A DNA stretch of 34,001 nt from Promethearchaeota archaeon (GTDB lineage: Archaea > Asgardarchaeota > Lokiarchaeia > Sigyniarchaeales > SOKP01): NCBI GenBank assembly GCA_011364925.1, contig RDOA01000041.1, forward strand, positions 1 to 34,001, given 5' to 3'. Position 1 is the first letter of the stretch. The number at the start of each line of letters is the position of its first letter. The notes under the pieces are model-generated. The model was not told the origin of the DNA, ran no database searches, and saw only the letters and a list, made by a program, of their open reading frames with translations. The translations under genes and the position numbers were made by a program. Positions 1 through 33,491 of the stretch are shown in pieces.

Positions 1-2102
1 TGAAATTTGATAAGGATGGATCTCCCCTAAATGATACCCCAAACTTAATTAGTCTTCCATTTCCAATTATTTTTAATCCCCCTCCCCATACTTCTAAAAA
101 CAATAGAAACCTCGAAACAGTCATAAAATCAGCACAGTCGTTAGGAACGATTGTTATTGTCCCCCAATCTGATTTTTCGAAGGATTTCCTACCATTTAGT
201 AAATCAATATCATTACGATTGAAAAAGGTGCCAAACCAAGAAGAAAAACAACTATTAAAGTTGTCTAAATTAGTTGAAATTGAGGATTTCAGCTTATTAA
301 GAACCGTGAAGAAGATTAATCCCGACATTTTATGTTCAATTTACCTTCCAATAGAGGAAGGGATTGAGACAAAAATACTTTCACTGGTAAGAAAAGGCAT
401 AGATATTATTCATTTAAATTTCAGTTTTTATGGTATGAGTAAACTAGGAGATATTCCGACCGTATTAAAAAGAATACACGATTTTCTGACTGATAAAAAG
501 TGTCGTAACTCAGCAAGTATCATCGTAAGTGGGGGAATAGCTGCTGCTGAACACGTCGCTAAAGCGATGATTTGTGGGGTGGATTGCGTAGCTATCGATT
601 ACGTTCTGTTAATAGCACTTGGATGTTCCTTATGGGCAGATTTATCTTTTCCGTGCGATGCTGAACACGGAGAGATAGATTTGAACTGGGGTGTGAGCAG
701 AATAAAAAATTTAGTTGCTACTTGGAGAGATCAATTACTTGAAATTCTTGGTGCTATGGGTATTCGAGAAATTAGACGAATAAGAGGAGAAGTAGGGAGG
801 GCGATATTTTATAAGAAAGAAAAAGAAGATTTTAAATCGCTTTTTATTTTAGCTAGTACAGAATCACCTTTAGGTTTCCGTGCTCCCCATGAACAACTTA
901 GCGTTGGAGATTGTCGTTGGCCTCTAGAATTAATTCAAGCCACATTCGAACAAGCACGCACGGGTCTCTTACCAAAAAGCTTAGAATACCGGATTGGTAG
1001 GAGTGCAGGAGGTTTTGACCGTCTTGCTTTCATATTTGAGGAAACCGAAAAAGAACTGAGAGACGATCAATCAATTGACCTATCGATTCCTTTAAATTTA
1101 AGGTCTAATGGTCCTAAAATATCGATTCCTATGCCAATTTATTCCGGAGGAATGTCTTTTGGTTCAATTTCTCTTAATGTAATGCTTGCTCGAGCGATGG
1201 CTGCCCAAGAATTAAAATCGTTTGTTTCTACAGGTGAAGGTGGGTATCCTACCGATTTAATACAATATAGAAAACATGTGATAACGCAAGTAGCAACTGG
1301 TTTATTTGGTGTGAGTGAGGCTTCGATTCAAAGGGCTCCTATTGTTGAGTTTAAATATGCTCAGGGAGCAAAACCCGGTTTAGGGGGACATCTACTGGCA
1401 GGAAAGGTTACAGAAGCTGTAGCTAATGCAAGAGAGTCAGTAGCGAATAGAAGTCTATTCTCTCCATTCCCTTTTCACAGTGTTTATTCAGTTGAAGATC
1501 ATAAAAAACATATAGATTGGATAAGACAAGTGAATCCAGAGGCTTTAGTGATCGTTAAGGTTTCAACTCCTACTGATGTAGACATGGTCGCCGTTGGTAG
1601 TTACTATGCTGGTGCCAATGTATTGAATATTGATGGGTCTTATGGGGGCACGGGTGCTGCTCCTGAAGTAAGTAAAAAAAACATAGCAATGCCCGTAGAG
1701 TATGCCATACCAAAGGTACATAATTTTTTGACAAAAGAAGGGATCAGAGACGATATTGTCTTGATTGCTTCTGGAGGAATACGTTCTGGTTATGATATTG
1801 CAAAAGCAATTGCATTAGGAGCGGATGGTGCGATGGTTGGTACAGCCGATTTAATAGCGTTAGGATGCGAACGATTAGGAGTATGTGAAAAGGGAGATGG
1901 GTGCCCAGCAGGTTTAACAACCACAGATCCAAAATTTGCTTCGCTAATAGATCCTCAATGGGGGAAAAGCCGTATAGTAAATCTACGAAAAGCGTGGGCT
2001 ATTCAATTACGCCAAATTTTAAACACATTAGGAATGAAAAGTATAAGAGAATTGAGAGGTAAAGCGGATACATTGTTATATTTAAATAAAGAGGTGCCAT
2101 AA
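1..2102 (+). CDS. Glutamate synthase-related protein with two tandem FMN-binding (GltB2-like) domains; 5'-truncated by the window edge
   Basis: The frame is open from position 3 (KFDKDGSP...), so the TTG at 219 is not the real start. The C-terminal domain has GGMSFGS, STGEGG, QVATGLFGV, KYAQGAKPGLGGHL, DGSYGGTGAAP, ASGGIRSGYDIAKAIALGAD and a [3Fe-4S]-type GCERLGVCEKGDGCPAG. An earlier degenerate copy has VSGGIAAAEHVAKAMICGVD and LGAMGIREIRRIRGE. Confidence 0.9.
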   Translation, partial: KFDKDGSPLNDTPNLISLPFPIIFNPPPHTSKNNRNLETVIKSAQSLGTIVIVPQSDFSKDFLPFSKSISLRLKKVPNQEEKQLLKLSKLVEIEDFSLLRTVKKINPDILCSIYLPIEEGIETKILSLVRKGIDIIHLNFSFYGMSKLGDIPTVLKRIHDFLTDKKCRNSASIIVSGGIAAAEHVAKAMICGVDCVAIDYVLLIALGCSLWADLSFPCDAEHGEIDLNWGVSRIKNLVATWRDQLLEILGAMGIREIRRIRGEVGRAIFYKKEKEDFKSLFILASTESPLGFRAPHEQLSVGDCRWPLELIQATFEQARTGLLPKSLEYRIGRSAGGFDRLAFIFEETEKELRDDQSIDLSIPLNLRSNGPKISIPMPIYSGGMSFGSISLNVMLARAMAAQELKSFVSTGEGGYPTDLIQYRKHVITQVATGLFGVSEASIQRAPIVEFKYAQGAKPGLGGHLLAGKVTEAVANARESVANRSLFSPFPFHSVYSVEDHKKHIDWIRQVNPEALVIVKVSTPTDVDMVAVGSYYAGANVLNIDGSYGGTGAAPEVSKKNIAMPVEYAIPKVHNFLTKEGIRDDIVLIASGGIRSGYDIAKAIALGADGAMVGTADLIALGCERLGVCEKGDGCPAGLTTTDPKFASLIDPQWGKSRIVNLRKAWAIQLRQILNTLGMKSIRELRGKADTLLYLNKEVP
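2091..2096 (+). promoter_or_regulatory. Shine-Dalgarno-like GAGGTG before a TAATG stop/start overlap
   Basis: GAGGTG lies 5 nt upstream of the ATG at 2102, and the upstream TAA shares its last A with that ATG. Confidence 0.6.
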
Positions 2103-4537
2103 TGAAGATTTTTAAGAAGGAAATCGAAGGTGGCTGTGGAGTTGTTGGTTTTTGCTCAAATGAAAAAATTACTGGGAAACATTTATTACCTCCGTGTTTT
2201 CAAATGCATAATAGGGGAAATGGAAAAGGAGGAGGTATAATTGCTATGGGATTAGAAGCTACACAACTTGATGTGTCAGAAGAAGTCCTAAATTCACATT
2301 ATTTGATCCAAATTGCCTATCTCGAACCCAAAGTTCGCAAAGAACTAGAAACTCAACATATTTACAAAAATTTTGATGTTCACTTGTTCTATAAAATAAA
2401 AATTAATGAAGATACATCAAAAATGTTTGAGATAACTCCACCTCAAGTATATAGATATTTCTGCCGAGTAAAAAAAACAGTTCTGAAGCAATTTATGAAT
2501 GATAACAGATTTTCAAATGAAGGAAAAGCTGAAGACGAATTTGTGTTTCAGAATAGTTACCGGATAAACAAGAAATTTTATAACGAAAATAAAGCTCAAG
2601 AAGCTTTTGTGTTATGTCATGGAAAAAATATGGTTGTGTTTAAAATAGTAGGGTATGCCGAAGAAGCTATCGAGTATTACAACTTAATGGAATTAAAGGC
2701 TCATATCTGGGTTGGGCACCAAAGATATCCCACTAGAGGGAGAGTATGGCATCCTGGAGGAGCTCATCCTTTTATAGGGCTAAAAGAGGCTTTAGTACAT
2801 AATGGAGATTTTGCAAATTATCACTCTATTTGTGAGTATCTCCTTCAAAATGGAAGGGAACCTTTATTTTCTACAGATACAGAAGTTGCTGTGTTATTAT
2901 TTGATCTCTGGACTCGAACATATAATTATCCATTAGAGTATGCTATCGAGGCTTTAGCGCCTACAACTGAAAGAGATTTCACAATGCTTCCCGTTGAAAA
3001 AAAGAACATTTATAAACAAATTCAGAGCTATCATATAGACAATTCTCCTGATGGTCCTTGGTTTTTTATAGTTGCTAGAAATGATGATTTAGAAGGTCAA
3101 CTCCAATTATTGGGCATAACTGACACTTCTATGTTAAGACCTCAAGTTTTTGCACTACAAGAAAACGATGAGGTAAAGATTGGTATAATAGCTTCTGAAA
3201 AACAGGCAATAGATTCGATTCTTTTAAGTATTTCTGAAGAAGATGACAGATTCTGTCCTATAGCTGATTTATATTGGAATGCTCGTGGTGGTAGTTATAC
3301 AGATGGAGGCGCCTTCCTTTTTTCATTGAAAAATAATATTTTATGTTGTACAGATAAATTTGGTAATGAAATAACAATTCCAAAAAAATTACAAAATAAA
3401 ACAAAAAGACTGAAGTCTTATCAGTTTAATCCAGATTTTAATAAATTTGTTAAGGAAATTCCTTCTATGGATTATGCTGATATATTAGGGTTTTTAAAAT
3501 CTGCTGAAGATCATGCAGAGAATGGTGATTTGCAATATCAAGAATCGATTACCTTACTTACTAAGTTAATTGATAGACATTATTCAGTTGGAGATAAAAA
3601 GCGAAGTAATTTATTAGCACTATATCAGAAGTCGTTATATGCGATATTTCGTAAAAAACTAGTTGGGTTAAAAAAATATAAGCATCTGAATTTTCAATCC
3701 TCAAGCATACCTGTTGCTGATGCAAGAGATCAATTTTTAATAATTGATGCTAGAGATTTTCCTTCAGAAGGTCCTAATAGCATAGCTTCAAGGATGGTTG
3801 AGGCTTTTTCTTACGGATGGATGAACATCATTGTATTTGATCTCAGAGGTCAGAGGTTTTGTGCTTGTGGTTTCGGAAATCATTCAAATTCTATTAGAAT
3901 TGAATTATATGGTTCTCCAGGTGATTATGTAGGCTCTGGTATTACTAATACCGAAATTTATGTGCATGCTAATGGGCAGGATCAATGGGGCCAGATAATG
4001 AAGTCAGGAAAACTTGTTATTCATGGTGATGTTGGACAAACATTTCTTTATGGAGCTAAAGGTGGTACTTGTTATGTTAGAGGAAACACGGCGGGAAGAG
4101 CTTTAATAAATGCAGTAGGGAATCCTCGCGTAATTATTAATGGAAGTTGTCTGGATTATTTAGCCGAATCATTTATGGCCGGTGATGTTTTTCATGATGG
4201 TGGTTTTGCTTTACTAAATGGAATATTTGCTAATAGTGATGGGAATATAGAAGAATATCCCGAACCTTATCCAGGAGGTAATTTATTTTCCTTGGCATCA
4301 GGAGGAGCAATATATATTCGGGACCCTCATCATAAAACTTCAAAAAATCAATTGAATGGTGGGAGTTTTGTTAATCTTACAAAAAAGGACTGGGATATCA
4401 TTAAACCATATTTACAGGAAAACGAAAGACTGTTTGGAATTAAAATCAATGATTTATTGACAGTTAACAATCAAATTAGACCACCAGAGGAAGTATATCG
4501 AAAAATTATTGTAGGAAGTACGGAGGTTTTGCATTGA
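2102..4537 (+). CDS. Glutamate synthase subunit: class II (Ntn) glutamine amidotransferase fused to a GXGXG (GltB3/FwdC-like) beta-helix domain
   Basis: N-terminal EGG-CGVVG (Ntn nucleophile after a short propeptide), HNRGNG, GHQRYPT, GAHPF, HNGDFAN and TDTEV. The C-terminal region has GSPGDYVGSG, HGDVGQTFLYGAKGG and YLAESFMAG. Confidence 0.9.
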   Translation: MKIFKKEIEGGCGVVGFCSNEKITGKHLLPPCFQMHNRGNGKGGGIIAMGLEATQLDVSEEVLNSHYLIQIAYLEPKVRKELETQHIYKNFDVHLFYKIKINEDTSKMFEITPPQVYRYFCRVKKTVLKQFMNDNRFSNEGKAEDEFVFQNSYRINKKFYNENKAQEAFVLCHGKNMVVFKIVGYAEEAIEYYNLMELKAHIWVGHQRYPTRGRVWHPGGAHPFIGLKEALVHNGDFANYHSICEYLLQNGREPLFSTDTEVAVLLFDLWTRTYNYPLEYAIEALAPTTERDFTMLPVEKKNIYKQIQSYHIDNSPDGPWFFIVARNDDLEGQLQLLGITDTSMLRPQVFALQENDEVKIGIIASEKQAIDSILLSISEEDDRFCPIADLYWNARGGSYTDGGAFLFSLKNNILCCTDKFGNEITIPKKLQNKTKRLKSYQFNPDFNKFVKEIPSMDYADILGFLKSAEDHAENGDLQYQESITLLTKLIDRHYSVGDKKRSNLLALYQKSLYAIFRKKLVGLKKYKHLNFQSSSIPVADARDQFLIIDARDFPSEGPNSIASRMVEAFSYGWMNIIVFDLRGQRFCACGFGNHSNSIRIELYGSPGDYVGSGITNTEIYVHANGQDQWGQIMKSGKLVIHGDVGQTFLYGAKGGTCYVRGNTAGRALINAVGNPRVIINGSCLDYLAESFMAGDVFHDGGFALLNGIFANSDGNIEEYPEPYPGGNLFSLASGGAIYIRDPHHKTSKNQLNGGSFVNLTKKDWDIIKPYLQENERLFGIKINDLLTVNNQIRPPEEVYRKIIVGSTEVLH

Positions 4538-5337
4538 ATATTATTGTTTGTTTAAAACAAGTACCAGATGCAGATGAAGTGAAAACAGATCCAGAGACAG
4601 GTCGAATTGTTCGTGAAGGTATTAAAGGGACAGTTAATCCTTTTGACATGTTTATTCTTGAAGAAGCTTTACGGTTAAAAGAACAATTTGGTGGAAAAAT
4701 TACATTACTCAGTATGGGACCTAAAGACGCGATACATACCCTATATTACGGTTTAGCTGTAGGGGCTGATGAGGGTTATTTACTTTCAGATAGTAAATTT
4801 GCGGGATCGGACACATTGGCTACATCTTACGCCTTGTCATGCGCTATAAAGACACTTGGCCTTTATGATTTAATAATGTGTGGTATTAAAACAACAGATG
4901 GTGATACTGGACAAGTAGGAGCAAATTTAGCCGAACTTCTTGATATTCCAAGCGTTTATTATGTTAATAGAATACTAAGTTATCAAAATGATTTTATAAA
5001 AGTGGAAAGGTTTTTAGAAGATAGATCCCAAATTTTAGAGGTGCATCTTCCTTGTCTCATTTCAATAATAAAAGGAGCAAATGTACCTAGAATGCCTACT
5101 TTGGAAGGAAAAATTGAAGCTGAAGGAAAGCAATTAAAAATACTTAATGCTTTCGAAGTGAACGCGATAGAAAAGTATTGTGGTATCGAAGGTTCTCCAA
5201 CTAGAGTAATAGAAATATTTCTTCCTGAAAAAAGGAAAAAGGGTGTAATTTTAAAGGGGTGTCGAGAACAAAATATCACTAAATTAATCCAATTTTTAAA
5301 AAATAAGAAAATATCAATCTTTGGGATGTGTTCTTAA
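4534..5337 (+). CDS. etfB: Electron transfer flavoprotein beta subunit
   Basis: MNIIVCLKQVPD, NPFD..LEEAL, SMGP, FAGSDTLATS, DGDTGQVG, GSPTRV. TTG start overlaps the upstream TGA (TTGA). Confidence 0.95.
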   Translation: MNIIVCLKQVPDADEVKTDPETGRIVREGIKGTVNPFDMFILEEALRLKEQFGGKITLLSMGPKDAIHTLYYGLAVGADEGYLLSDSKFAGSDTLATSYALSCAIKTLGLYDLIMCGIKTTDGDTGQVGANLAELLDIPSVYYVNRILSYQNDFIKVERFLEDRSQILEVHLPCLISIIKGANVPRMPTLEGKIEAEGKQLKILNAFEVNAIEKYCGIEGSPTRVIEIFLPEKRKKGVILKGCREQNITKLIQFLKNKKISIFGMCS

Positions 5338-5359
5338 AAGTTAATAGGGGCGTTAATAA

Positions 5360-6535
5360 TTGATTACTATTGATAGAGAAAAGTGCATTGGTTGCGGTGA
5401 ATGTGTGGATGTATGTGTATTTGGATCTATTTCTATGAAAGATAATCATCCCATAATCTCAGATGATTGTCGGTTATGCGGATCTTGTGCTAAAGTGTGC
5501 CAATATAATGCAATAGAAATTAAACGAGAGAAGAAAAAGAAAGTTACAGATTGGCGCGGTATTCTTATTTTTGGTGAACAGCGTGATGGGGTAATTTTAG
5601 AAGTGGTTTATGAGCTTTTAGGAAAGGGGAGAAAATTAGCAGATTCTATCAACGAGCCACTTTTATGTGTTATTCTAGGAAAATTTGTAGCAGAAATTAA
5701 TAAACTAGCATTATATGGAGCAGATGAGATACATTACTTCGAAGATGTAAAACTTGAATCGTTTAATTGTGAGATCTATTCAAATATCATTTCAAATTTT
5801 ATTAAAAAGATAAAGCCAAGCATTTTTTTAATAGGAGCGACCTCTATAGGACGCGAACTAGGACCTAGGGTTGCTGCAAAGCTTAAAACAGGACTAACTG
5901 CCGACTGCACTGGTTTAGAAGTAAATAAAGAGGGTTTGTTAGTTCAAACTAGGCCTGCATTTGGTGGAAATATCATGGCATCTATAATATGCCCAAATTC
6001 GCGACCACAAATGGCTACTGTACGCCCAAAAGTAATGAAGAAATTAGAAGCAAAAGAAAGAGAAGGAAAACTATTCAATCACGTAGTAAATTCAGAGTTA
6101 ATTGACTCAAGCATAAAAATATTAGGGGAAATCAAATTTAATGGCCAATGTGATATAAATAATGCTGAAATTATCGTTTCAGGAGGTTTGGGTGTAGGTA
6201 AGAAAGAAGGATTTGATTTATTAGAAAAACTCGCTCTCGAGCTAAATGGAGTAATAGCAGCAAGTAGACCAGCGGTTGATGCGGGATGGGCAGATCCTAA
6301 TATCCAAGTTGGTATGTCTGGAAAAGTTGTGCAACCGCATTTATATGTTGCCTGTGGAATATCCGGAGCTGTACAACACCGTGTTGGTATGGAAACATCT
6401 GATGTCATTGTTGCTATCAATAAAGATGAGCGCGCTCCAATATTTGATATTGCTGATTTTGGAATTGTAGCTGATTTATATGATTTTATTCCAAAATTTA
6501 TCCAAAATTTGAAAAACTCAAAAGCTCAAATATAA
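5360..6535 (+). CDS. etfA: Electron transfer flavoprotein alpha subunit with N-terminal 2x[4Fe-4S] ferredoxin domain
   Basis: CIGCGECVDVC and CRLCGSCAKVC, followed by GLTADC, TRPAFGGN, RPQMATVRP, SRPAVDAGW, QVGMSGK and GISGAVQH. Confidence 0.95.
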   Translation: MITIDREKCIGCGECVDVCVFGSISMKDNHPIISDDCRLCGSCAKVCQYNAIEIKREKKKKVTDWRGILIFGEQRDGVILEVVYELLGKGRKLADSINEPLLCVILGKFVAEINKLALYGADEIHYFEDVKLESFNCEIYSNIISNFIKKIKPSIFLIGATSIGRELGPRVAAKLKTGLTADCTGLEVNKEGLLVQTRPAFGGNIMASIICPNSRPQMATVRPKVMKKLEAKEREGKLFNHVVNSELIDSSIKILGEIKFNGQCDINNAEIIVSGGLGVGKKEGFDLLEKLALELNGVIAASRPAVDAGWADPNIQVGMSGKVVQPHLYVACGISGAVQHRVGMETSDVIVAINKDERAPIFDIADFGIVADLYDFIPKFIQNLKNSKAQI

Positions 6536-6616: not shown

Positions 6617-8266
6617 ATGCATAATTCGGATCTTAAGCTAATAATCGCTCAAATTAATCCTATTGTAGGGGATATTGACTATAACACAGCAAAGATTACT
6701 GAGATTATAAAAAGTCACGAAAATTGCGACATTTTTATTTTTCCTGAAATGTCTTTAGTGGGTTATCCTATTATGGATCATATCCATGATCCTCTTATTC
6801 AGAGAAAAAATAATGAAGCAATTGAAGAAATTAAGGCATTAAACACTACTGCAACAGTTATTCTTGGTTCATTTACCAAACCTGAAAAGTTAAAAGAAAA
6901 AGTCCAACCTTTCTATAATTCAGCGATTATCATTGAAAACAACAAAATAAAAGCTTATGTGAACAAGCGATTATTACCGAACTATGATGTCTTTGACGAG
7001 AGAAGATATTTCTCTTTTGATAATGACTATGAGCCTATTAAAATACATAATTATAAAATTGGAATACTTATATGCGAAGATATATGGGATGAACATTATG
7101 ATACTAATGTAGCAAAGAACTTAGTAGATAATGGTGCTGAACTATTGATTGTTATAAATGCATCGCCGTTTCACATAAATAAATTTCAGATTAGAAGTGA
7201 TTTAATTACAAGAAAATCTAAGAACCTCCATGTTCCTATTGTATACGTTAATATGGTTGGTGGATTAGATGAAATAGTATACGATGGCCAGAGTTTTATT
7301 TCAAATAAATTTGGCCAAATAATTTTTAGAGCAAAAGCTTTTGAAGAGGATATTTCTACTTTTGTGCTTAATATGCAGGGACAAAGCAAAACTCAAGAAC
7401 AATTTAAAGAAGCTGATTGGAGAGAAGATGTAATTAAGGCATTGAAATTAAACTTGTATGACTACTACCATAAGAGTAATATCTTTAATGGCGTTGTATT
7501 AGGTTTGAGTGGGGGAGTAGATTCAGCGTTTACCGCATACATTTGTGCTCAGTCCCTTGGTTCTGACAAGGTGAATGCAATAATGATGCCAACGCGATTT
7601 ACATCAGAAGAAAGCATCGATCTTGCCCGAAAGCTGTGTAACAACTTAGAAATTAAATACAAAATCCATCCAATAGATGAGATTTTTGATCAATTTGAAA
7701 GTAATATAAATGATAATCTAGGGAAACAGCCTTTTGATATCGCTGACGAGAATCTTCAAGCTCGAATAAGAGCAAATATATTGATGTATTATTCAAATAA
7801 GTTTAATTGGTTATTAGTGTCAACAGGGAATAAATCTGAGATCGCAGTAGGTTTCTGTACGTTATACGGTGATACATGCGGTGGAAAGAACGTTCCGGGA
7901 GACCTCTTAAAGGTTCAGATTTACGATATTTGCAATTGGATCAACAAGGAAAAAGAGATAATCCCAAATGGTATTATTGAAAGACCTCCTACAGCAGAAT
8001 TAAGAGAAAATCAAAAAGATAGTGATTCTATACCTCCTTACGATGTCCTTGATGTTATATTAAACGAGATATTTGAACATGGGATTGGTTCTGAATATCA
8101 GAATTTACATGACTTAGGTTATGACAGTAATACAATTGAAAAGGTAAGAAGCCTTTATTTGAACTCCGAATATAAACGAAGGCAATTGGTGCAAACCATT
8201 AAAGTAAGTAAAAGTGCCTTTGGAATTGGAAGAAGATATCCAGTTTTAAAGAAGTTAAAATTCTAA
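6617..8266 (+). CDS. nadE: Glutamine-dependent NAD+ synthetase
   Basis: Nitrilase-type glutaminase domain (FPE, KRLLPNYDVFDERRYF, ICEDIW) plus synthetase domain (LGLSGGVDS, ENLQARIR, STGNKSE, TLYGD, PPTAELR). Confidence 0.96.
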   Translation: MHNSDLKLIIAQINPIVGDIDYNTAKITEIIKSHENCDIFIFPEMSLVGYPIMDHIHDPLIQRKNNEAIEEIKALNTTATVILGSFTKPEKLKEKVQPFYNSAIIIENNKIKAYVNKRLLPNYDVFDERRYFSFDNDYEPIKIHNYKIGILICEDIWDEHYDTNVAKNLVDNGAELLIVINASPFHINKFQIRSDLITRKSKNLHVPIVYVNMVGGLDEIVYDGQSFISNKFGQIIFRAKAFEEDISTFVLNMQGQSKTQEQFKEADWREDVIKALKLNLYDYYHKSNIFNGVVLGLSGGVDSAFTAYICAQSLGSDKVNAIMMPTRFTSEESIDLARKLCNNLEIKYKIHPIDEIFDQFESNINDNLGKQPFDIADENLQARIRANILMYYSNKFNWLLVSTGNKSEIAVGFCTLYGDTCGGKNVPGDLLKVQIYDICNWINKEKEIIPNGIIERPPTAELRENQKDSDSIPPYDVLDVILNEIFEHGIGSEYQNLHDLGYDSNTIEKVRSLYLNSEYKRRQLVQTIKVSKSAFGIGRRYPVLKKLKF

Positions 8267-10286: not shown

Positions 10287-10877
10287 ATGAGTGAACTAAA
10301 AGAAACCGAAACAGGAATAGATGAAGTGTTTCCTTTCATTGAAGGAGAAATCATAGATTTAGTCGCTGGAAATTCCAACTGGGCAAAATTACATTGTAAG
10401 TGGAATAATGCTCCGAACGTACGTCATTACGCTCGAAATTTGTGGCCTATTACACTTGAAGAAGTAAAAAAGTGGTTTGATCCTTCAGTAGAAGGGCGCA
10501 CGAGGGACTTCGTTGTATTTACGATCTATCATAAGGCGGAAGAACGCCCAATCGGTACGATCGGTTTTGGTCGAATTAGATGGGTAGATCGTCGTGCGTC
10601 GATTTCTGGAGTTATTGGAGAGGTAGATTTATGGGGTCGAGGAATTATGCTTGAAGCGGCTAAATTATTAGTCGAATATGGTTTTCGTGAATTAAATTTG
10701 CATAAAATTAACGCAGAGTTGTTATCATCCGATAAAAGATCACTTCGGGTCGCAGAAAAATTAGGTTTTAAAAAAGAAGCAGTTTTTAAAGAACAGATGT
10801 ACGTTGATGGACAGTATCAGGATATAGAGAAACTCTCACTTTTTAAGAGGGATTGGCTAAAATTGAATACGTTGTGA
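10287..10877 (+). CDS. RimJ/RimL-family GNAT N-acetyltransferase (paralog 1)
   Basis: PIGTIG, WGRGIMLEA, GFRELNLHKI, EKLGFKKEA. Confidence 0.9.
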   Translation: MSELKETETGIDEVFPFIEGEIIDLVAGNSNWAKLHCKWNNAPNVRHYARNLWPITLEEVKKWFDPSVEGRTRDFVVFTIYHKAEERPIGTIGFGRIRWVDRRASISGVIGEVDLWGRGIMLEAAKLLVEYGFRELNLHKINAELLSSDKRSLRVAEKLGFKKEAVFKEQMYVDGQYQDIEKLSLFKRDWLKLNTL

Positions 10878-10901
10878 GTAAAAAACTTTTTTATAGAGAG
10901 G

Positions 10902-11501
10902 TTGGATATGATAGAAAAAAACAAAGAAAACGACAATAAGTTTGAGGTTTTTCCCTTTATCAAGGGAGATACCATTGACTTGGTTGTTAACAATTCTAAG
11001 TGGTTAGATTTAAGAACCAAATGGGAGAATGATCCAGAAGTAAGACGATATGCTCGCAACACCTGGCCGCGTACAGTTGAGGAATTAAAAAAATGGACCG
11101 AACCTGCGCCGAGAGGACAAATTAAGGAATTTATAAATCTAGTTATATATCATAAGCAAGATAAGAGGCCAATCGGCACTATTGGATTTGGTCATATAGA
11201 TTGGGTAAATCGTAATGCGAATATTGCTGCTATGATAGGAGAACCCGAGTATTGGGGAAAGGGGATAATAGGGGAAGCTTCTAAATTAGTAATTGACTAT
11301 GGTTTTAACGAATTGAATTTTCATAAAATATATGCTGGGATCTATAAACCGAATGAAAGGTCTCTTCGAGCAGCCGAAAAGCTAGGTTTTCAAAAAGAAG
11401 GCGTCCTTAAAGAAGAACAATATGTTGACGGGCAATATCACGATATGCATAAGTTCGCTCTCTTCAAAAGAGATTGGATTAAATTAAACGAGAACGAGTA
11501 A
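10902..11501 (+). CDS. RimJ/RimL-family GNAT N-acetyltransferase (paralog 2)
   Basis: IGEPEYWGKGI, NERSLRAAEKLGFQKEG. ATG at 10908 may be the true start. Confidence 0.9.
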   Translation: MDMIEKNKENDNKFEVFPFIKGDTIDLVVNNSKWLDLRTKWENDPEVRRYARNTWPRTVEELKKWTEPAPRGQIKEFINLVIYHKQDKRPIGTIGFGHIDWVNRNANIAAMIGEPEYWGKGIIGEASKLVIDYGFNELNFHKIYAGIYKPNERSLRAAEKLGFQKEGVLKEEQYVDGQYHDMHKFALFKRDWIKLNENE

Positions 11502-11519
11502 CACAGTTTTGATATCAAT

Positions 11520-12116
11520 ATGAGCGATCAAAGAATCTCGGTATTTATTACAGGAAACTTAGTGGACTTAATCCCTTTAAATAGTGAACACATTAATTTA
11601 TATGCGAAATGGGAAAATGATCCTTATGTACGTTTATACTCACGTAACATAATTCCGAAAACACCTGAAGATATGACAAGATTTTTAGAACCTTCTGAAA
11701 AAGGAACTATGAAGGAAGAGATAAGCTTTGAAGTATGGCATCAAAAAGATAACAAACCTATAGGATACGGAGAAGTTGCTGATATCGATTGGTATAGTCA
11801 AATAGGATGGTTGGGTTTAGTTATAGGAGAACCCGAATATTGGGGGCAGAAAATAGGAGAGGAAGTAATAGCTTTAATGATAGAGTACGCTTTTAGCGAA
11901 TTAAATTTTTTTAAACTGCACGCTGGAGTAATTTCCGCTAACATTGGATCTTGGAAATGTATCGAAAAGAATGGTTTTATCCGTGAAGCCATCCTAAGAA
12001 ATGAAACTTATGTTCATGGAAAATATTACGATTATTTTATTTATTCGCTCTTTAAAGATAATTGGGTAGAAAATAAAAAACAAATAACTCAAAAAAGAAA
12101 AAATAATAAATTTTAA
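11520..12116 (+). CDS. RimJ/RimL-family GNAT N-acetyltransferase (paralog 3)
   Basis: IGEPEYWGQKIG, NIGSWKCIEKNGFIRE. Confidence 0.88.
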   Translation: MSDQRISVFITGNLVDLIPLNSEHINLYAKWENDPYVRLYSRNIIPKTPEDMTRFLEPSEKGTMKEEISFEVWHQKDNKPIGYGEVADIDWYSQIGWLGLVIGEPEYWGQKIGEEVIALMIEYAFSELNFFKLHAGVISANIGSWKCIEKNGFIREAILRNETYVHGKYYDYFIYSLFKDNWVENKKQITQKRKNNKF

Positions 12117-12657: not shown

Positions 12658-14391
12658 TTATCCGCCCCAAACCTTGTCTAATTCCTCGTCCGTAACACCA
12701 AAAACATCATTACCAGGGGGTAAAGGCTCTTTTAAAAAGAACTCGGGTAATCTATCGTGTTTGTTAGTAAAACCTGCTGCTTTATTAAACTCTCTTTCAG
12801 TATCGATGATTGATTGTCCGTAACCGGGAACGTCATTAACAGTAAGGTTTGTGCCCAATACGCCATTTAATGTATCAACGACGCCTTCTAACCCTTCGGC
12901 AATATCTAAAATTGCAAAGGCAATGAAGAGACAATATCCTGTCGAATCCACTGCAGCAGTAGCAACTTGCAAGTTTCGCGATAACTCAGCTTTCTTAGTG
13001 TCTTTAGGATCTGCTGTACCGCCCACTCCTAGAATTTCGGTCGCAATTGCGTATCCAGCTGTGTGATCTGCACCCTGAGTTGTTGTTGCGTAAGTTACAC
13101 CTATTCCTTTTATTGCCCGTGGATCATACGCTGGCAGACTCTGCCCTTTAACAACTGGAACTCTGGTTACTCCATAAGCTTGTCCAACAAATGCGGCACC
13201 GTTAGCTAAAATTCTCCCTGTAGGTGTTTTATTCTTAATTTCGTCCATTAATTTTAAAGCATCTTTACCGTCCCCAAAATCAATTAATCCACCTTCCATT
13301 GCTACTCCAAGCAAGCCACCTGCTTCAATTGTATCCAGACCTAAATCGTTACACGCTCTATTTAGTTCTCCAATGGTATCTAAATCGTAAATCCCGCAGT
13401 TAGGACCTAGTGCCCAAACGCTTTCGTACTCTAAAACACCAACTGGCTCTTTTCCTCCAGGTTTTGTCCACACTTCCGAACATTGAATAATACATCCTGG
13501 GCTACAAAAGTGAGGACGAGCGCCTCCTCGTTTTTTGATTTCATCAGCTTTCACTTCTCCAGATACTTTTTCAGATTGATCATCTTGACCTGCCGAAAAG
13601 TTCCGTTGTGGTAAACCTCCAGCTTCGTTGATAATATTAACAAGCACACTTGTACCATATGAGTTTAAAGCCCCACCTGGTTTAGTTACATCGTGAGTTG
13701 TTAGGGCATCTCTTAACTTTTTAACACCCATATCAAAAGCTTCTTGATTTTTTATTTCCACTCCTGGAGCTCCTGTTTCGTCAACAATTATGAATTTTAA
13801 TCCTTTTGAAGCCATAACAGCTCCAAGTCCACCTCGACCTGCGTATCGACTAGGTAAGCCTTCAGGATCGTTAAAACATACGCCTGAGGCAGCTCCCATT
13901 AATTCACCCGCAATACCCGTGGCACAAATACCTACTTTATCTCCAAATTCTTTGAATAAATCTTTGTAGACTCCATATAGCCCCTTTCCAAACCATTTTT
14001 GAGCGTCCATGAATTCAACGCCATCCATTGTGACTTTAAGTAGGTGATAATGATCCTTCTGTTGCCCTTCAACTACAATTGCTGCTATCCTCATTCTTGC
14101 TAATTTTTGAGAGAAACTGGTCCCAGCATTTGCCTCCTTTATACCTCCTGTTAATGGAGATTTTGCTCCAACTGAAATTCGTCCGGAAGTTGGAGCTTTT
14201 GTTCCTGTTACCAAACCAGGAGCAAATACAAGCTTATTATTTGGACCTAATGGATGGCAAAGTGGATCAACTTCCTTCGCAACGATAGTCGATGTAAGAG
14301 CGCGTCCACCTAAAGCTACGAAATCCGCTGGTAAATCTTCAAATTTCGCTTCAAGTTTTGTCATATCTACTCTTAAAATTCTTTTTGACAT
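12658..14391 (-). CDS. aor: Tungsten-dependent aldehyde:ferredoxin oxidoreductase family protein
   Basis: RILRVDM, AKSPLTGGIKEANAG, AGRGGLGAVMASKGLK, CSPGCIIQC, EYES, GLDTIE, PAYDPR, GADHT, GYCLF, DRLPEFF. SD GAGGTGA upstream. Confidence 0.93.
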   Translation of the reverse strand: MSKRILRVDMTKLEAKFEDLPADFVALGGRALTSTIVAKEVDPLCHPLGPNNKLVFAPGLVTGTKAPTSGRISVGAKSPLTGGIKEANAGTSFSQKLARMRIAAIVVEGQQKDHYHLLKVTMDGVEFMDAQKWFGKGLYGVYKDLFKEFGDKVGICATGIAGELMGAASGVCFNDPEGLPSRYAGRGGLGAVMASKGLKFIIVDETGAPGVEIKNQEAFDMGVKKLRDALTTHDVTKPGGALNSYGTSVLVNIINEAGGLPQRNFSAGQDDQSEKVSGEVKADEIKKRGGARPHFCSPGCIIQCSEVWTKPGGKEPVGVLEYESVWALGPNCGIYDLDTIGELNRACNDLGLDTIEAGGLLGVAMEGGLIDFGDGKDALKLMDEIKNKTPTGRILANGAAFVGQAYGVTRVPVVKGQSLPAYDPRAIKGIGVTYATTTQGADHTAGYAIATEILGVGGTADPKDTKKAELSRNLQVATAAVDSTGYCLFIAFAILDIAEGLEGVVDTLNGVLGTNLTVNDVPGYGQSIIDTEREFNKAAGFTNKHDRLPEFFLKEPLPPGNDVFGVTDEELDKVWGG

Positions 14392-29217: not shown

Positions 29218-30207
29218 TTAAAAGTCAATATCCTGACCAACACCTTCTTGCAGGGCTCTATCATAAACCAGTTTTCCAACTGCTACATCTTGAGCGCTAA
29301 TCCCTACAGATTTGAATACTGTAATTTCTGTATCAGATGTACGGCTATTCTTCTTTCCCGTTATAATGTCTCCTATTGAAATGATAGCATCTTTAGAAAT
29401 AATTCCTTCATTAATTGGAATTATGTAATCTCCTGCTTCTGCTAAGCATGCTTCTTTCAATCCAGCTATAAGCAAGGATGCTCTCTTAATTGTTGTAGAA
29501 TCTAATTCCCGAGCTTCTGGGGCGTGCGCACCGATAGATGAGATGTGTGTACCTTCCAATACCTTTTCACCAGCGAATATTGGAGTAGTACTAGTAGTAG
29601 CTGCTACGATAATGTCTGTATTTGAAAGTAAATCTTCACCAGAACTCATAATTTCAACATCAATTCCTAACTCTTTTTCGATTTCCGTTTTGAAACTTTC
29701 AGCGGTGTCTTTTTTAAGATCGTAGACTTTACATTTTTCTAATTTTTGGTTTAATCCGTAGAAAACACCAGAAACTTGCTTTCTAGCTTGAACCCCTGCG
29801 CTATATATGCTCATCGTGTTACTATCTTTACGCGCTAAGAATTTAACAGATACTCCCGTAGCTGCTCCCGTTCTCATCGCTGTTATAAGACTACCGTCCA
29901 TAATTCCAACTATATCACCAGTGTTAATGTCTTGAACCATAATTTTTGCCAACACAGTGGGTATATTGTATAACTCTGGATTTTTCTTATAAACAGACAC
30001 AATTTTAGTTGCTAAGGCGCTCATTTCCCCTCCTATAATACCAGGCATTATTAATGTTAGCCCTGGAGCGGGGTCTGTAATAGCTATTCTCTGTGGCACA
30101 AGCGCATTACCCAGTGTCAATTGTTTGTAAGCTTCCTCTACGTATTCCAACGCGTCTGCCATGTTTAATAACTCAGAAACATTATCCTTTGTTAAAATCC
30201 TTACCAT
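29218..30207 (-). CDS. Ornithine cyclodeaminase / archaeal alanine dehydrogenase (mu-crystallin family)
   Basis: ATKIVSVY..N, ITAMRTGAA, DIIVAATTS, GTHISSIGA, RELD, FKSVGISAQDV. Confidence 0.92.
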   Translation of the reverse strand: MVRILTKDNVSELLNMADALEYVEEAYKQLTLGNALVPQRIAITDPAPGLTLIMPGIIGGEMSALATKIVSVYKKNPELYNIPTVLAKIMVQDINTGDIVGIMDGSLITAMRTGAATGVSVKFLARKDSNTMSIYSAGVQARKQVSGVFYGLNQKLEKCKVYDLKKDTAESFKTEIEKELGIDVEIMSSGEDLLSNTDIIVAATTSTTPIFAGEKVLEGTHISSIGAHAPEARELDSTTIKRASLLIAGLKEACLAEAGDYIIPINEGIISKDAIISIGDIITGKKNSRTSDTEITVFKSVGISAQDVAVGKLVYDRALQEGVGQDIDF

Positions 30208-30386
30208 TATTTATAATACACCAATTTTGAATCTATAGAATTAATTAATGTATTATTCTTGAGTTATTAAATATATAGCTTTACATCTAAGGATTAATTC
30301 TAGATTAATTTTTCAGCGATCTAAATTAAAATCTTTAAATATTAGATTTTAATAAGATGCGATATTTTCCCATGTAAGTGAAGATT

Positions 30387-31871
30387 ATGAGTGAACAGCA
30401 TTTCCTTCATGGATTCTTAAACCCTAAAAAAAGCGTGGCATTTTACGGTGCAAACAATAAGGGAGGCTCGCTAGCAGCGATTCAAATAATGGATTTAATT
30501 AAGTCTGGATATGATGGAAACATTTATCCTATTCACTTGAAATTAGATTCAGTTATGGGATTCAAAGCGTACAAATCATTAGCAGAAATTCCGGAAATAC
30601 CCGATCTTGTAATCATTGTACTTCCCGCTAAAGTAGTGCCTCAGATATTTAAAGAATGCGGCGAGAAAGGCGTTAAAAAAATAATCTTAATCTCTGGAGG
30701 ATTTAGAGAATTAACAGACGATCGAAAAAACAGTCTCACTGAAGAAATATGCAATATCGCGGATAGCTATGGAATGCGCTTTATTGGTCCTAATTGTTTG
30801 GGCGTATTCAATAATTGGTACCACCCTGAAAACGAATATTCGGCGTTTAATATCGCCATTTGGGAGAAATTAAAAAAAGGCAATTTTTCGATTGCCTCCC
30901 AAAGCGGAACTCTAAGTTCTCATATCTGGTTCGATCCAAGTAGCGTAGATGTTGGTCTAAGCAAGTCTTTATCAGTAGGAAACGAAGCCAATATTGATAT
31001 CGTGGATTGTTTAGAGTACTATAAAAATGACGACCAAACGCAAGTTATAGGATTGTACATTGAAGAATTAAAGAGAGGAAAAAAATTTTTGGAATTGGCA
31101 AAAGAAGTTACATCAACTAAACCAATTGTGAGTATCTATGTGGGAGGTACCGAAGCAGGTAATCGTGCTCTCCAAAGTCACACGGGTTCCTTAGCAGGAA
31201 ATAGTAGGTTGTACGATGCTGCTTTTAAAGCGACGGGAATTATTAGAACGGATTATGTACAAGAATTTTTAGATGTCGCACTTATACTATCTAATGGCGT
31301 ATTACTCAAAGGCAATCGTTTAGGAATTATTACAAATTCAGGAGGACCGGGCGCAATGATAGCGAATAACGCCGAAAAGAAAGGATTAATCGTTCCCGAA
31401 TTTTCTAAATCGCTTCAAATTGAACTTAAAGAACATTTACCGTCAAATGCGAGCTTTAAAAATCCAGTCGATTGTGCTTTTGATATGGATTTGCCTTACT
31501 TTTACATTACTTTACCAGAACTTTTAATGAAATCTGGAGAAGTAGATGCTATTATCCAATATGGTGTTGTTGGATTCCAAGATGTACTGGATGATTTCCT
31601 CAACTATGAGAAAATAGCAAAAAGCGCAGAGTTTACAAACCAACCTGTTGAAGTTGTAGATAATTTAGCTAAAAAACTTGTGATCCCAACAGTGCAAAAT
31701 TCACGCAAGTATCAAGTCCCAATATTGCATGTCAGTCCAATGCCCTTCAATAGTCCTTGGTCAAAGAGGTTAAGAGAAAACGGTTTCCTCCTCTTCAGGT
31801 TATGGGATAGACCCGTAAATGCTTTAGCCAAGGTATATGAGTATGTCTCGTATATCCAAAAGTCAAAATGA
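30387..31871 (+). CDS. ADP-forming acyl-CoA synthetase alpha-like subunit (CoA-binding)
   Basis: LNPKKSVAFYGA, IGPNCLG, SQSG, SVGNEA, SHTGSLAG (phospho-His), TNSGGPG, NPVD. No ATP-grasp beta domain. GTG 30378 is an alternative start. Confidence 0.88.
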   Translation: MSEQHFLHGFLNPKKSVAFYGANNKGGSLAAIQIMDLIKSGYDGNIYPIHLKLDSVMGFKAYKSLAEIPEIPDLVIIVLPAKVVPQIFKECGEKGVKKIILISGGFRELTDDRKNSLTEEICNIADSYGMRFIGPNCLGVFNNWYHPENEYSAFNIAIWEKLKKGNFSIASQSGTLSSHIWFDPSSVDVGLSKSLSVGNEANIDIVDCLEYYKNDDQTQVIGLYIEELKRGKKFLELAKEVTSTKPIVSIYVGGTEAGNRALQSHTGSLAGNSRLYDAAFKATGIIRTDYVQEFLDVALILSNGVLLKGNRLGIITNSGGPGAMIANNAEKKGLIVPEFSKSLQIELKEHLPSNASFKNPVDCAFDMDLPYFYITLPELLMKSGEVDAIIQYGVVGFQDVLDDFLNYEKIAKSAEFTNQPVEVVDNLAKKLVIPTVQNSRKYQVPILHVSPMPFNSPWSKRLRENGFLLFRLWDRPVNALAKVYEYVSYIQKSK

Positions 31872-32651: not shown

Positions 32652-33491
32652 ATGGTATACAATAGGAAGAAAGAGACTGAGAAAAGCGTCGTAAACTCTA
32701 CAACGGAGCCTAACACAATTACTTCCCTGAAACACGATTTTAAAGCGCTTGGTGTTAAACAAGGTGCCAATGTTATTCTGCATGTTTCCCTAAGTAAAAT
32801 TGGCTGGATAATTGGAGGGTCAGTTGCATTGCTTAAAGCGTTAATGGAAACTTTAACCGAGGAAGGAACATTAGTAATACCAACATTTACGGGAGACAAC
32901 TCTGACCCATCGTATTGGGAGAATCCACCCGTACCTAAGAGTTGGTGGGAAAAGATTAGGAAAGAAATGCCCGCTTTTGAACCCGAAATAACACCCTCGA
33001 GAGGGATAGGAAAAGTTGCAGAGACTTTTAGAAGTTGGCCCGGTGTATTACGGAGTAATCATCCCATCGCTTCATTCGCAGCATGGGGTAAAAACGCAAA
33101 TTTTATTACTGAAAACCATGAGTTAGAGATTGATCTTGGTGAAGGTTCGCCGATCTCTCGACTTTACGATCTTGATGGTCAGATTTTGTTAATTGGAGTT
33201 TCCCATATCAACAATTCATCGTTACATCTTGCAGAATATCGAAGTGATTTCCCTGGTAAAAGAAGAAGGATGACTGGGAGCGCTGTAAAAGTCGATAACC
33301 GGAATCAATGGGTAGAATGGGAAGAATTAGATATTAATAGTGATGATTTTGACCGCCTTGGAAAAGATTTTGAGCTTATGACTAATTATAACCCCGGAAA
33401 AATCGGATTAGCAGAAAGTCGATTGATCTCTGTCAGAGAAATCGTAGATTTTGGAGTAGAATGGTTAAAGAAAAACCGAAAAGCTCCTTAA
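32652..33491 (+). CDS. AAC(3)/YokD-family N-acetyltransferase
   Basis: LHVSLSKIGW, GTLVIPT, SDPSYWENPP, RSNHPIASFAAWG, GEGSP, SLHLAE. Confidence 0.9.
   Translation: MVYNRKKETEKSVVNSTTEPNTITSLKHDFKALGVKQGANVILHVSLSKIGWIIGGSVALLKALMETLTEEGTLVIPTFTGDNSDPSYWENPPVPKSWWEKIRKEMPAFEPEITPSRGIGKVAETFRSWPGVLRSNHPIASFAAWGKNANFITENHELEIDLGEGSPISRLYDLDGQILLIGVSHINNSSLHLAEYRSDFPGKRRRMTGSAVKVDNRNQWVEWEELDINSDDFDRLGKDFELMTNYNPGKIGLAESRLISVREIVDFGVEWLKKNRKAP

Follow-up and report, generated by a model that had tools for sequence, protein, structure and literature searches.

The four-gene locus and its synthase core

The stretch of DNA analysed here (the window: 34,001 nucleotides, the entire contig RDOA01000041.1, or C51, of a 3.9 Mb Lokiarchaeia genome from a Promethearchaeota archaeon) opens with four genes that encode the core of a glutamate synthase and both subunits of an electron-transfer flavoprotein (ETF). 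All lie on the forward strand. Open reading frame (ORF) 1 (3-2102), cut by the contig edge, encodes 699 aa in the window, in which a degenerate barrel resembling the GltB central domain is fused to a flavin mononucleotide (FMN)/[3Fe-4S] synthase barrel (Pfam Glu_synthase, E 8e-102). ORF2 (2102-4537; 811 aa; GATase_6 and GXGXG) comprises a class II (Ntn) glutamine amidotransferase, a linker and a GXGXG beta-helix. It is followed by etfB (4534-5337; 267 aa), of the bifurcating (group 2) type, and by etfA (5360-6535; 391 aa), whose product carries an N-terminal 2x[4Fe-4S] domain (5384-5500) before its ETF and ETF_alpha domains. ORF1 and ORF2 share a TAATG stop/start overlap (2100-2104), the ORF2 stop and the TTG start of etfB overlap in TTGA (4534-4537), and a gap of 22 bp (5338-5359) separates etfB from etfA. 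This gene order, with both overlaps, the gap and the ferredoxin-fused etfA, had already been described in a reading made from the sequence only, and it is confirmed by the ORF coordinates and domain matches. What had been called an FMN protein does contain an FMN barrel, to which a second, degenerate barrel in the same ORF has to be added.

The degenerate barrel of ORF1, best matched at 279-632, lacks the loops for FMN and 2-oxoglutarate and keeps two of the four cysteines of the cluster motif of its split homologues. It is 27% identical to the second barrel (E 2e-20) and matches Pfam Glu_syn_central (E 3e-10). The second barrel is complete (1089-2036), has FMN- and 2-oxoglutarate-binding motifs and aligns with the synthase domain of GltB in 7MFM and 2VDC (E ~1e-54 to 1e-57). 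It includes positions equivalent to E886, Q909, K931, K937, R957, K999 and T1030 of the A. brasilense enzyme, with the roles that these residues have in GltB structures. Its three-cysteine [3Fe-4S] motif (1866-1904) reads Cx5Cx5C where GltB has Cx5Cx4C, and the FMN, 2-oxoglutarate and [3Fe-4S] motifs are invariant among members of the four-gene cassette. No N-terminal ferredoxin domain was found in ORF1. An AlphaFold model of ORF1, of modest quality (pLDDT 66.6, 8-row alignment) and used for domain arrangement only, superposes on residues 452-1182 of GltB 1EA0 (Z 28.9, 605 aligned residues, rmsd 5.4), a range that corresponds to the central plus synthase domains with the boundaries given in PMC8097209. 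In ORF2, Cys12 lies behind a short leader and is nearly invariant among 35 homologues, in which Arg208, Asn234, Gly235 and Asp259 are invariant; the GXGXG match has an E value of 1e-11. Judged from sequence and model, ORF1 and ORF2 jointly hold all four GltB domains, in permuted order and with the catalytic residues kept.

The missing 5' end is supplied by a metagenome contig (L056) that is 97.7% identical to the window over 6,620 nt. There, ORF1 is complete with 820 aa, about 121 residues being absent from the window copy, and the gene order is a divergent lrp/asnC, a 129-aa ORF, glnA, ORF1, ORF2, etfB and etfA. A glnA gene stands at the equivalent position in five further relatives. The upstream glnA encodes a type I GlnA (TIGR00653 score 500.7, cut-off 429.15) and falls below the TIGR03105 cut-off (314 vs 469.6). 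Neither the 5' part of ORF1 nor any glnA was found in the genome's own assembly, and the lack of glnA fits an assembly gap. The sequence-only reading had noted the absence of GltD and of an acyl-CoA dehydrogenase from an operon whose 5' end lay outside the window. Indeed the operon runs off the contig edge, and inspection of the upstream genes on L056 revealed glnA and a regulator, with no gltD or acyl-CoA dehydrogenase gene in or adjoining the operon. GltD and dehydrogenase genes were likewise absent from all 15 cassette loci examined; a GltD/NfnB-like gene is located elsewhere in the same genome (contig C38).

Downstream, a glutamine-dependent NAD synthetase gene, nadE (6617-8266, forward strand), begins 81 bp after etfA. 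It neighbours 6 of the 15 cassette loci and is an accessory gene outside the core cassette. The stretch is represented in marine-sediment and marsh metagenomes, and the relatives carry the labels Promethearchaeota or Lokiarchaeota. A promoter scan of the locus gave chance-level results with a sigma-70 model that is unsuited to an archaeon. Between lrp/asnC and glnA, six relatives retain an ORF of 129-134 aa that has N-terminal cysteine pairs and matches no family; the small ORF of L056 (5673-6062) is of this kind.

Linkage between synthase and ETF

The synteny of gltB-like and etfBA genes was surveyed in 400 Asgard genomes, 27 of which carry the ORF2 family and 10 a close ORF2 ortholog (at least 58% identity). 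An EtfB of at least 55% identity was found in exactly those 10 genomes, always directly behind ORF2. The next-best EtfB reached at most 48%, and no copy of the cassette EtfB clade was observed without the synthase among the 400. The four-gene block, in which stop and start codons overlap or abut, is conserved in each of the 10 Lokiarchaeia genomes with the synthase ortholog and also on contigs of more distant archaea, so the linkage is no accident. It occurs without glnA in an Altiarchaeota-labelled metagenome-assembled genome and in one other archaeal contig, it stands alone among unrelated genes on L159 and L161, and at least the ORF2-etfB pair, in this order, is present on further archaeal contigs. 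The start/stop overlaps persist down to about 52% EtfB and 55% ORF2 identity; glnA, nadE and the regulator are variable.

The cassette EtfB proteins form one clade (support 100/99), every context-checked member of which lies directly behind ORF2. Their nearest outside relatives with readable context adjoin acyl-CoA dehydrogenases, which suggests that the cassette ETF was recruited from a CarCDE/Bcd-type operon; the neighbourhood of the sister ETF P0240 is uninformative. A second type of ETF, about 40% identical and with an EtfA devoid of a ferredoxin domain, was found behind ORF2 in two other Asgard families, in G298 and in G397 (of which G397 is labelled Heimdallarchaeota), and on L170-L172. 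The barrels of its synthase keep their ferredoxin domains, and in the ORF2 tree, built with FastTree, this synthase forms a separate branch, whose sister group consists of two genomes without the ETF, one being Atabeyarchaeum. The earlier proposal that the ETF is the redox partner of the synthase is supported both by the dedicated ETF clade and by the occurrence of another ETF type in the equivalent position. In Heimdallarchaeota-type cassettes, an ornithine cyclodeaminase/mu-crystallin gene overlaps etfA (L071:6009-7100; L170:2156-3232); the window also has such a gene (29218-30207), unlinked to the cassette. One record titled Thorarchaeota (L042) contains an operon 78% identical that nests among Lokiarchaeia, probably a label discrepancy.

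The type of the ETF was examined with motif definitions from PMC10734219, PMC12630350 and PMC9232219. The closest solved structures to EtfB are LctB, C. difficile EtfB, CarD, A. fermentans EtfB and T. maritima EtfABCX, and the closest to EtfA is CarE, all of them from bifurcating ETFs. In the motif of EtfB (122-130) that binds the flavin adenine dinucleotide (FAD) termed b-FAD (PMC9232219, PMC12630350), Asp122, Gly123, Asp124, Thr125, Gln127 and Gly129 are invariant in the clade, Gly123 being a marker of bifurcating ETFs (PMC12630350). The SPT anchor (221-223), which has a role in coupling and not in individual redox steps (PMC9232219), is present in 27 of 27 clade members. In the RxGV motif, Arg27-Gly29 is invariant and Ile replaces Val here. 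In EtfA, Arg198 of the RPxFGG motif is invariant, an arginine located at N5 of b-FAD (PMC10734219), and all eight ferredoxin cysteines are present. A ferredoxin-fused EtfA is also found in the nearest non-cassette ETFs beside acyl-CoA dehydrogenases. Taken by its motifs, the cassette ETF is likely a two-FAD, NADH-using protein.

The ORF2 family is far wider: at least 7,782 homologues have E values of 1e-50 or lower, and its named members come from anaerobic lineages, for instance Chloroflexota, Aminicenantes, ANME-1 and Thermoplasmatota. In most of them each barrel is encoded by its own gene and carries an N-terminal ferredoxin domain, and barrel 1 has a four-cysteine motif. The fused Loki barrels have lost both the ferredoxin domains and the barrel-1 cluster; having no electron-entry flavin of its own, the Loki synthase needs an outside donor. 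Among 80 metagenome loci of the family, the redox neighbours were MvhD (21), MetV and MetF (20), FAD_binding_4/Fe-S proteins (12), HdrA (7) and GltD/NfnB (7), with no ETF at any of the 80. Alternative redox modules at the equivalent place point to a slot for electron supply. Glutamine users were also found nearby (glnA 11, carB 6, purF 6, nadE 4).

Several arrangements within this family are worth recording. An unnamed FAD_binding_4/Fe-S protein precedes the synthase in other lineages (L055:5359-7161; L054:5016-6782; L134; L139), 5 of the 12 loci with such a protein also have a GltD/NfnB-like gene downstream, and a PyrK-like gene lies beside it at L139, the one locus checked. The synthase is often embedded with mvhD-metV-metF and hdrC-hdrB-hdrA (L119:3511-17730; L087:1962-7425), where HdrA is a 1,500-aa protein with a GltD-like insert. 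The two barrels lie at L056:7539-10001, L054:7111-9995 and L055:7154-10011, and the split homologues keep the ferredoxin domain and the cysteine cluster motif in both copies. The barrel pair looks like a possible snapshot of the GltB central domain arising by duplication, and an FMN barrel beside its recognisable degenerate copy bears on that question of origin.

Electron supply and the readings it allows

The four genes probably constitute an assimilatory glutamate synthase with a dedicated, NADH-oxidising two-FAD ETF in place of GltD, a reading to which we assign a probability of roughly 0.7. Glutamine would be hydrolysed by ORF2, whose Cys12 would be exposed by leader removal as in GltB, and the ammonia, after passing the central-like barrel, would reach the FMN barrel of ORF1, which would aminate and reduce 2-oxoglutarate to glutamate. 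Together with the upstream glnA, the cassette would form a glutamine synthetase-glutamate synthase (GS-GOGAT) cycle. The assimilatory role is inferred from gene content. In 5 of 5 relatives examined (91-100% complete genomes), no Glu_synthase match other than the cassette synthase was found, and these five cassette-bearing relatives are without the second synthase present in the window's own genome. The latter is a three-gene archaeal glutamate synthase on contig C66 (L052:4342-14945), with a CCG/Fe-S protein upstream and two glutamate dehydrogenase-family genes in the vicinity.

For the input of electrons, the ETF is expected to contact the synthase, NADH would reduce the b-FAD of EtfB, and the lone [3Fe-4S] cluster of ORF1 would receive its electrons from the ETF. 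The wiring judged likeliest, which takes up about half of the hypothesis, is modelled on CarCDE and Ldh-EtfAB. In it, the a-FAD shuttle would feed the synthase and the fused 2x[4Fe-4S] domain of EtfA would send a low-potential electron to ferredoxin. The net reaction would be 2 NADH + oxidised ferredoxin + glutamine + 2-oxoglutarate giving 2 NAD+ + reduced ferredoxin (2 electrons) + 2 glutamate. The cassette is tentatively proposed to be an electron-bifurcating glutamate synthase, in which NADH would drive the reductive amination of 2-oxoglutarate as the exergonic arm of ferredoxin reduction. The glutamine/2-oxoglutarate couple lies near -46 mV. With textbook potentials, uncoupled use of NADH was computed to release about 53 kJ/mol, and coupling to ferredoxin at -420 to -500 mV leaves -34 to -18 kJ/mol. 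The acceptor potential falls between those of crotonyl-CoA (-10 mV, PMC9232219) and menaquinone (-74 mV, PMC10734219), both established acceptors in bifurcation. From motifs and thermodynamics, bifurcation by the cassette ETF is plausible.

A number of points weigh against this picture. In the A. brasilense synthase, the [3Fe-4S] cluster has a potential of -280 mV, or -190 mV with 2-oxoglutarate, and FMN of -240/-270 mV (PMC8097209), so that the high-potential a-FAD branch would face an uphill target; in Ldh-EtfAB, a-FAD can be tuned to a partner at -190 mV (PMC9232219). Among the group 2 residues, Gly123, SPT and the EtfA arginine are kept but three positions of EtfB deviate. Pro130 is replaced by Ala here, with Ala or Gln at this position as a clade signature; Gln119 has become Lys119 in 26 of 27 clade members; and in the NAD-binding RxFxG motif (87-91), where Phe89 and Gly91 are invariant, Arg87 is Ser here, followed by Lys88. 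Arg87 is kept in 19 of 27 members, lost in the window's subclade and also variable among outside homologues. Since an ETF closely related to bifurcating ones need not bifurcate itself, as in C. propionicum (PMC9232219), bifurcation does not follow from motifs alone. As for the linkage, fused homologues at other loci have no ETF nearby, so the synthase can draw electrons from elsewhere. The 10 genomes are kin, in which the block was perhaps inherited once, and co-occurrence overstates the case. The genome also contains about nine acyl-CoA dehydrogenase genes with no adjoining ETF, possible users of the cassette ETF. Finally, a single origin of both ETF types was not rejected by the AU test (p 0.40), which leaves the two independent recruitments suggested by the free trees unproven; a functional tie between synthase and ETF is supported whether there was one old link or a second recruitment.

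Within the same donor reading, the ETF could be a simple substitute for GltD that conserves no energy, with electrons passing from NADH over b-FAD and the fused 2x[4Fe-4S] domain to [3Fe-4S] and FMN, or with both branches rejoining inside the synthase. Such a chain of FAD, two [4Fe-4S], [3Fe-4S] and FMN is the wire of GltD/GltB (PMC8097209), and a GltD-like route through the fused ferredoxin domain fits equally well. It agrees with the low potentials of the synthase cofactors, with the clade-specific changes beside b-FAD and with the lost ferredoxin domains and barrel-1 cluster of the fused barrels, mirrored in the second ETF type, where EtfA has no ferredoxin domain and the barrels keep theirs. 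This complementarity is, however, based on two lineages. Moreover, the ferredoxin fusion was inherited, being present in the nearest ETFs beside acyl-CoA dehydrogenases, in CarCDE and LctBCD it is a relay to external ferredoxin (PMC9232219), and the coupling anchor SPT is universal in the clade. We regard this energy-neutral route as possible, if doubtful. The electron bifurcation considered in the sequence-only reading is plausible, with room left by the low potentials for a plain NADH-to-synthase wire.

Other explanations detach the ETF from this task or change the direction of the reaction. That the ETF was merely co-transferred or co-regulated and serves other dehydrogenases, the synthase using free ferredoxin, would account for the patchy cassette (10 of about 160 Lokiarchaeia genomes, as transfer would give) and for the lack of an ETF in 15 of 17 other Asgard loci and in all 80 metagenome loci. 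It is unlikely in view of start/stop overlaps that outlast glnA, nadE and the regulator, of an EtfB clade never found apart from the synthase among the 400 genomes and of a second ETF type at the equivalent place. The ETF might instead bifurcate, with an acyl-CoA dehydrogenase encoded elsewhere as its high-potential acceptor and a glutamate synthase of the ferredoxin type taking the electrons of low potential. The architecture does resemble that enzyme (FMN and [3Fe-4S], no FAD of its own), the nearest ETFs are partners of acyl-CoA dehydrogenases, and the genome has its ETF-less dehydrogenases. We nevertheless hold it to be improbable, as a dehydrogenase gene adjoins the cassette in 0 of 15 loci and the genome's second ETF stands beside its acyl-CoA dehydrogenase on C69. 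An oxidative glutamate or N-methylglutamate pathway was also raised in the sequence-only reading. Such a catabolic or C1 role would consist either of oxidative glutamate deamination that supplies the ETF by confurcation or of an N-methylglutamate synthase of the MgsABC/GlxBCD kind. It draws on canonical ETFs collecting electrons from amine dehydrogenases, on the three-gene synthase and glutamate dehydrogenases on C66, and on the three Pfam modules, which build N-methylglutamate synthase as well. That enzyme is redox-neutral and is not known to need an ETF, the cassette ETF is of the two-FAD type, and the reverse reaction would need to make glutamine without ATP. Furthermore, the neighbouring GlnA is of type I, glutamine users are found around the family, the glutaminase site and central domain are present, neither N-methylglutamate dehydrogenase nor methylamine genes turned up at the cassette loci, and the synthase is the sole one in the five relatives. 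The catabolic role as a whole is accordingly given very little credence, and identity with N-methylglutamate synthase is unlikely.

Significance and relation to known systems

Known glutamate synthases take their electrons from GltD or free ferredoxin (PMC8097209), and the surveyed ETF-based bifurcating complexes pair with Bcd, CarC, Ldh or FixCX (PMC6085437). A literature search, with most subscription papers outside its coverage, found no description of a pairing of ETF and glutamate synthase or of this synthase in Lokiarchaeia. An ETF-driven synthase would be a third input module for glutamate synthases and a new class of partner for bifurcating ETFs. If it bifurcates, that partner would be an FMN/[3Fe-4S] biosynthetic enzyme of an undescribed kind and the assimilation of nitrogen would in itself generate reduced ferredoxin, a point of importance for Asgard archaea with their slow growth; these energy-starved inhabitants of sediments would regain some of the energy spent on GS-GOGAT. 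The four genes are small, apparently soluble and self-contained, which makes the claim directly testable.

The remainder of the window holds genes of other kinds. Adjacent genes at 20798-24798 weakly match an adaptor-complex medium subunit (E 4e-8) and BBS7/BBS2 beta-propellers (E 5e-23), which resemble eukaryote-signature trafficking proteins. Three tandem GNAT (RimJ/RimL-like) acetyltransferase paralogues lie behind an MFS transporter (10287-12116), and a predicted aminoglycoside 3-N-acetyltransferase family gene (Pfam Antibiotic_NAT, E 4e-88) is found at 32652-33491. Catabolic genes include an aldehyde:ferredoxin oxidoreductase (12658-14391), a dihydrolipoamide dehydrogenase-like flavoprotein (17423-18913), a MOFRL-family kinase (19020-20450) and an acyl-CoA synthetase (ADP-forming) alpha-like subunit (30378-31871).

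Among known systems, N-methylglutamate synthase (MgsABC/GlxBCD) shares with the cassette its GATase, GXGXG and FMN modules and the nearby gene of the glnA family. The cassette differs by its type I glutamine synthetase neighbour in place of a methylamide synthetase, by its central-like barrel and ETF, and by the lack of an N-methylglutamate dehydrogenase. With the three-gene archaeal synthase (GATase, ferredoxin-FMN and GXGXG subunits), of which C66 bears a copy, it has in common a split organisation and the three modules. The identity to the C66 copy is only 31-35%, and the cassette has an extra degenerate barrel, a GATase fused to GXGXG and an FMN subunit without a ferredoxin domain.

All four large-subunit domains are shared with the NADPH-dependent synthase GltB/GltD (A. 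brasilense 1EA0, 2VDC, 6S6S; 7MFM) and with the ferredoxin-dependent synthase of Synechocystis (1LLW, 1OFD). The central and synthase arrangement superposes with Z 27-30 over about 600 residues, and the FMN, 2-oxoglutarate and [3Fe-4S] residues and the N-terminal catalytic cysteine are common to them. Unlike GltB, the cassette is split over two genes in permuted order (central-FMN, then GATase-GXGXG), its central-like barrel is still recognisably akin to the FMN barrel, its cluster spacing is Cx5Cx5C, it scores far below the NCBIfam GltB cut-off (220 vs 1047), and an ETF stands where gltD would adjoin.

On the ETF side, CarCDE (6FAH), LctBCD (7QH2), Bcd-EtfAB (4KPU, 5OL2) and EtfABCX (7KOE) are the best PDB matches of both subunits. 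The cassette EtfA is ferredoxin-fused like CarE, and Gly123, SPT and the EtfA arginine are as in bifurcating ETFs. In contrast to these complexes, the proposed partner is an FMN/[3Fe-4S] amidotransferase and not an FAD dehydrogenase, the clade has Lys119 and Ala/Gln130, the window's subclade has lost Arg87, and bifurcation is here a prediction. Neither an acyl-CoA dehydrogenase nor LctD nor FixCX (the latter judged from gene lists) occurs in the 15 cassette loci. Because the defining partners are absent, the cassette is a member neither of GltB/GltD nor of the CarCDE/Bcd/Lct/Fix complexes; it would work as a GltB core to which a CarDE-like input module supplies the electrons.

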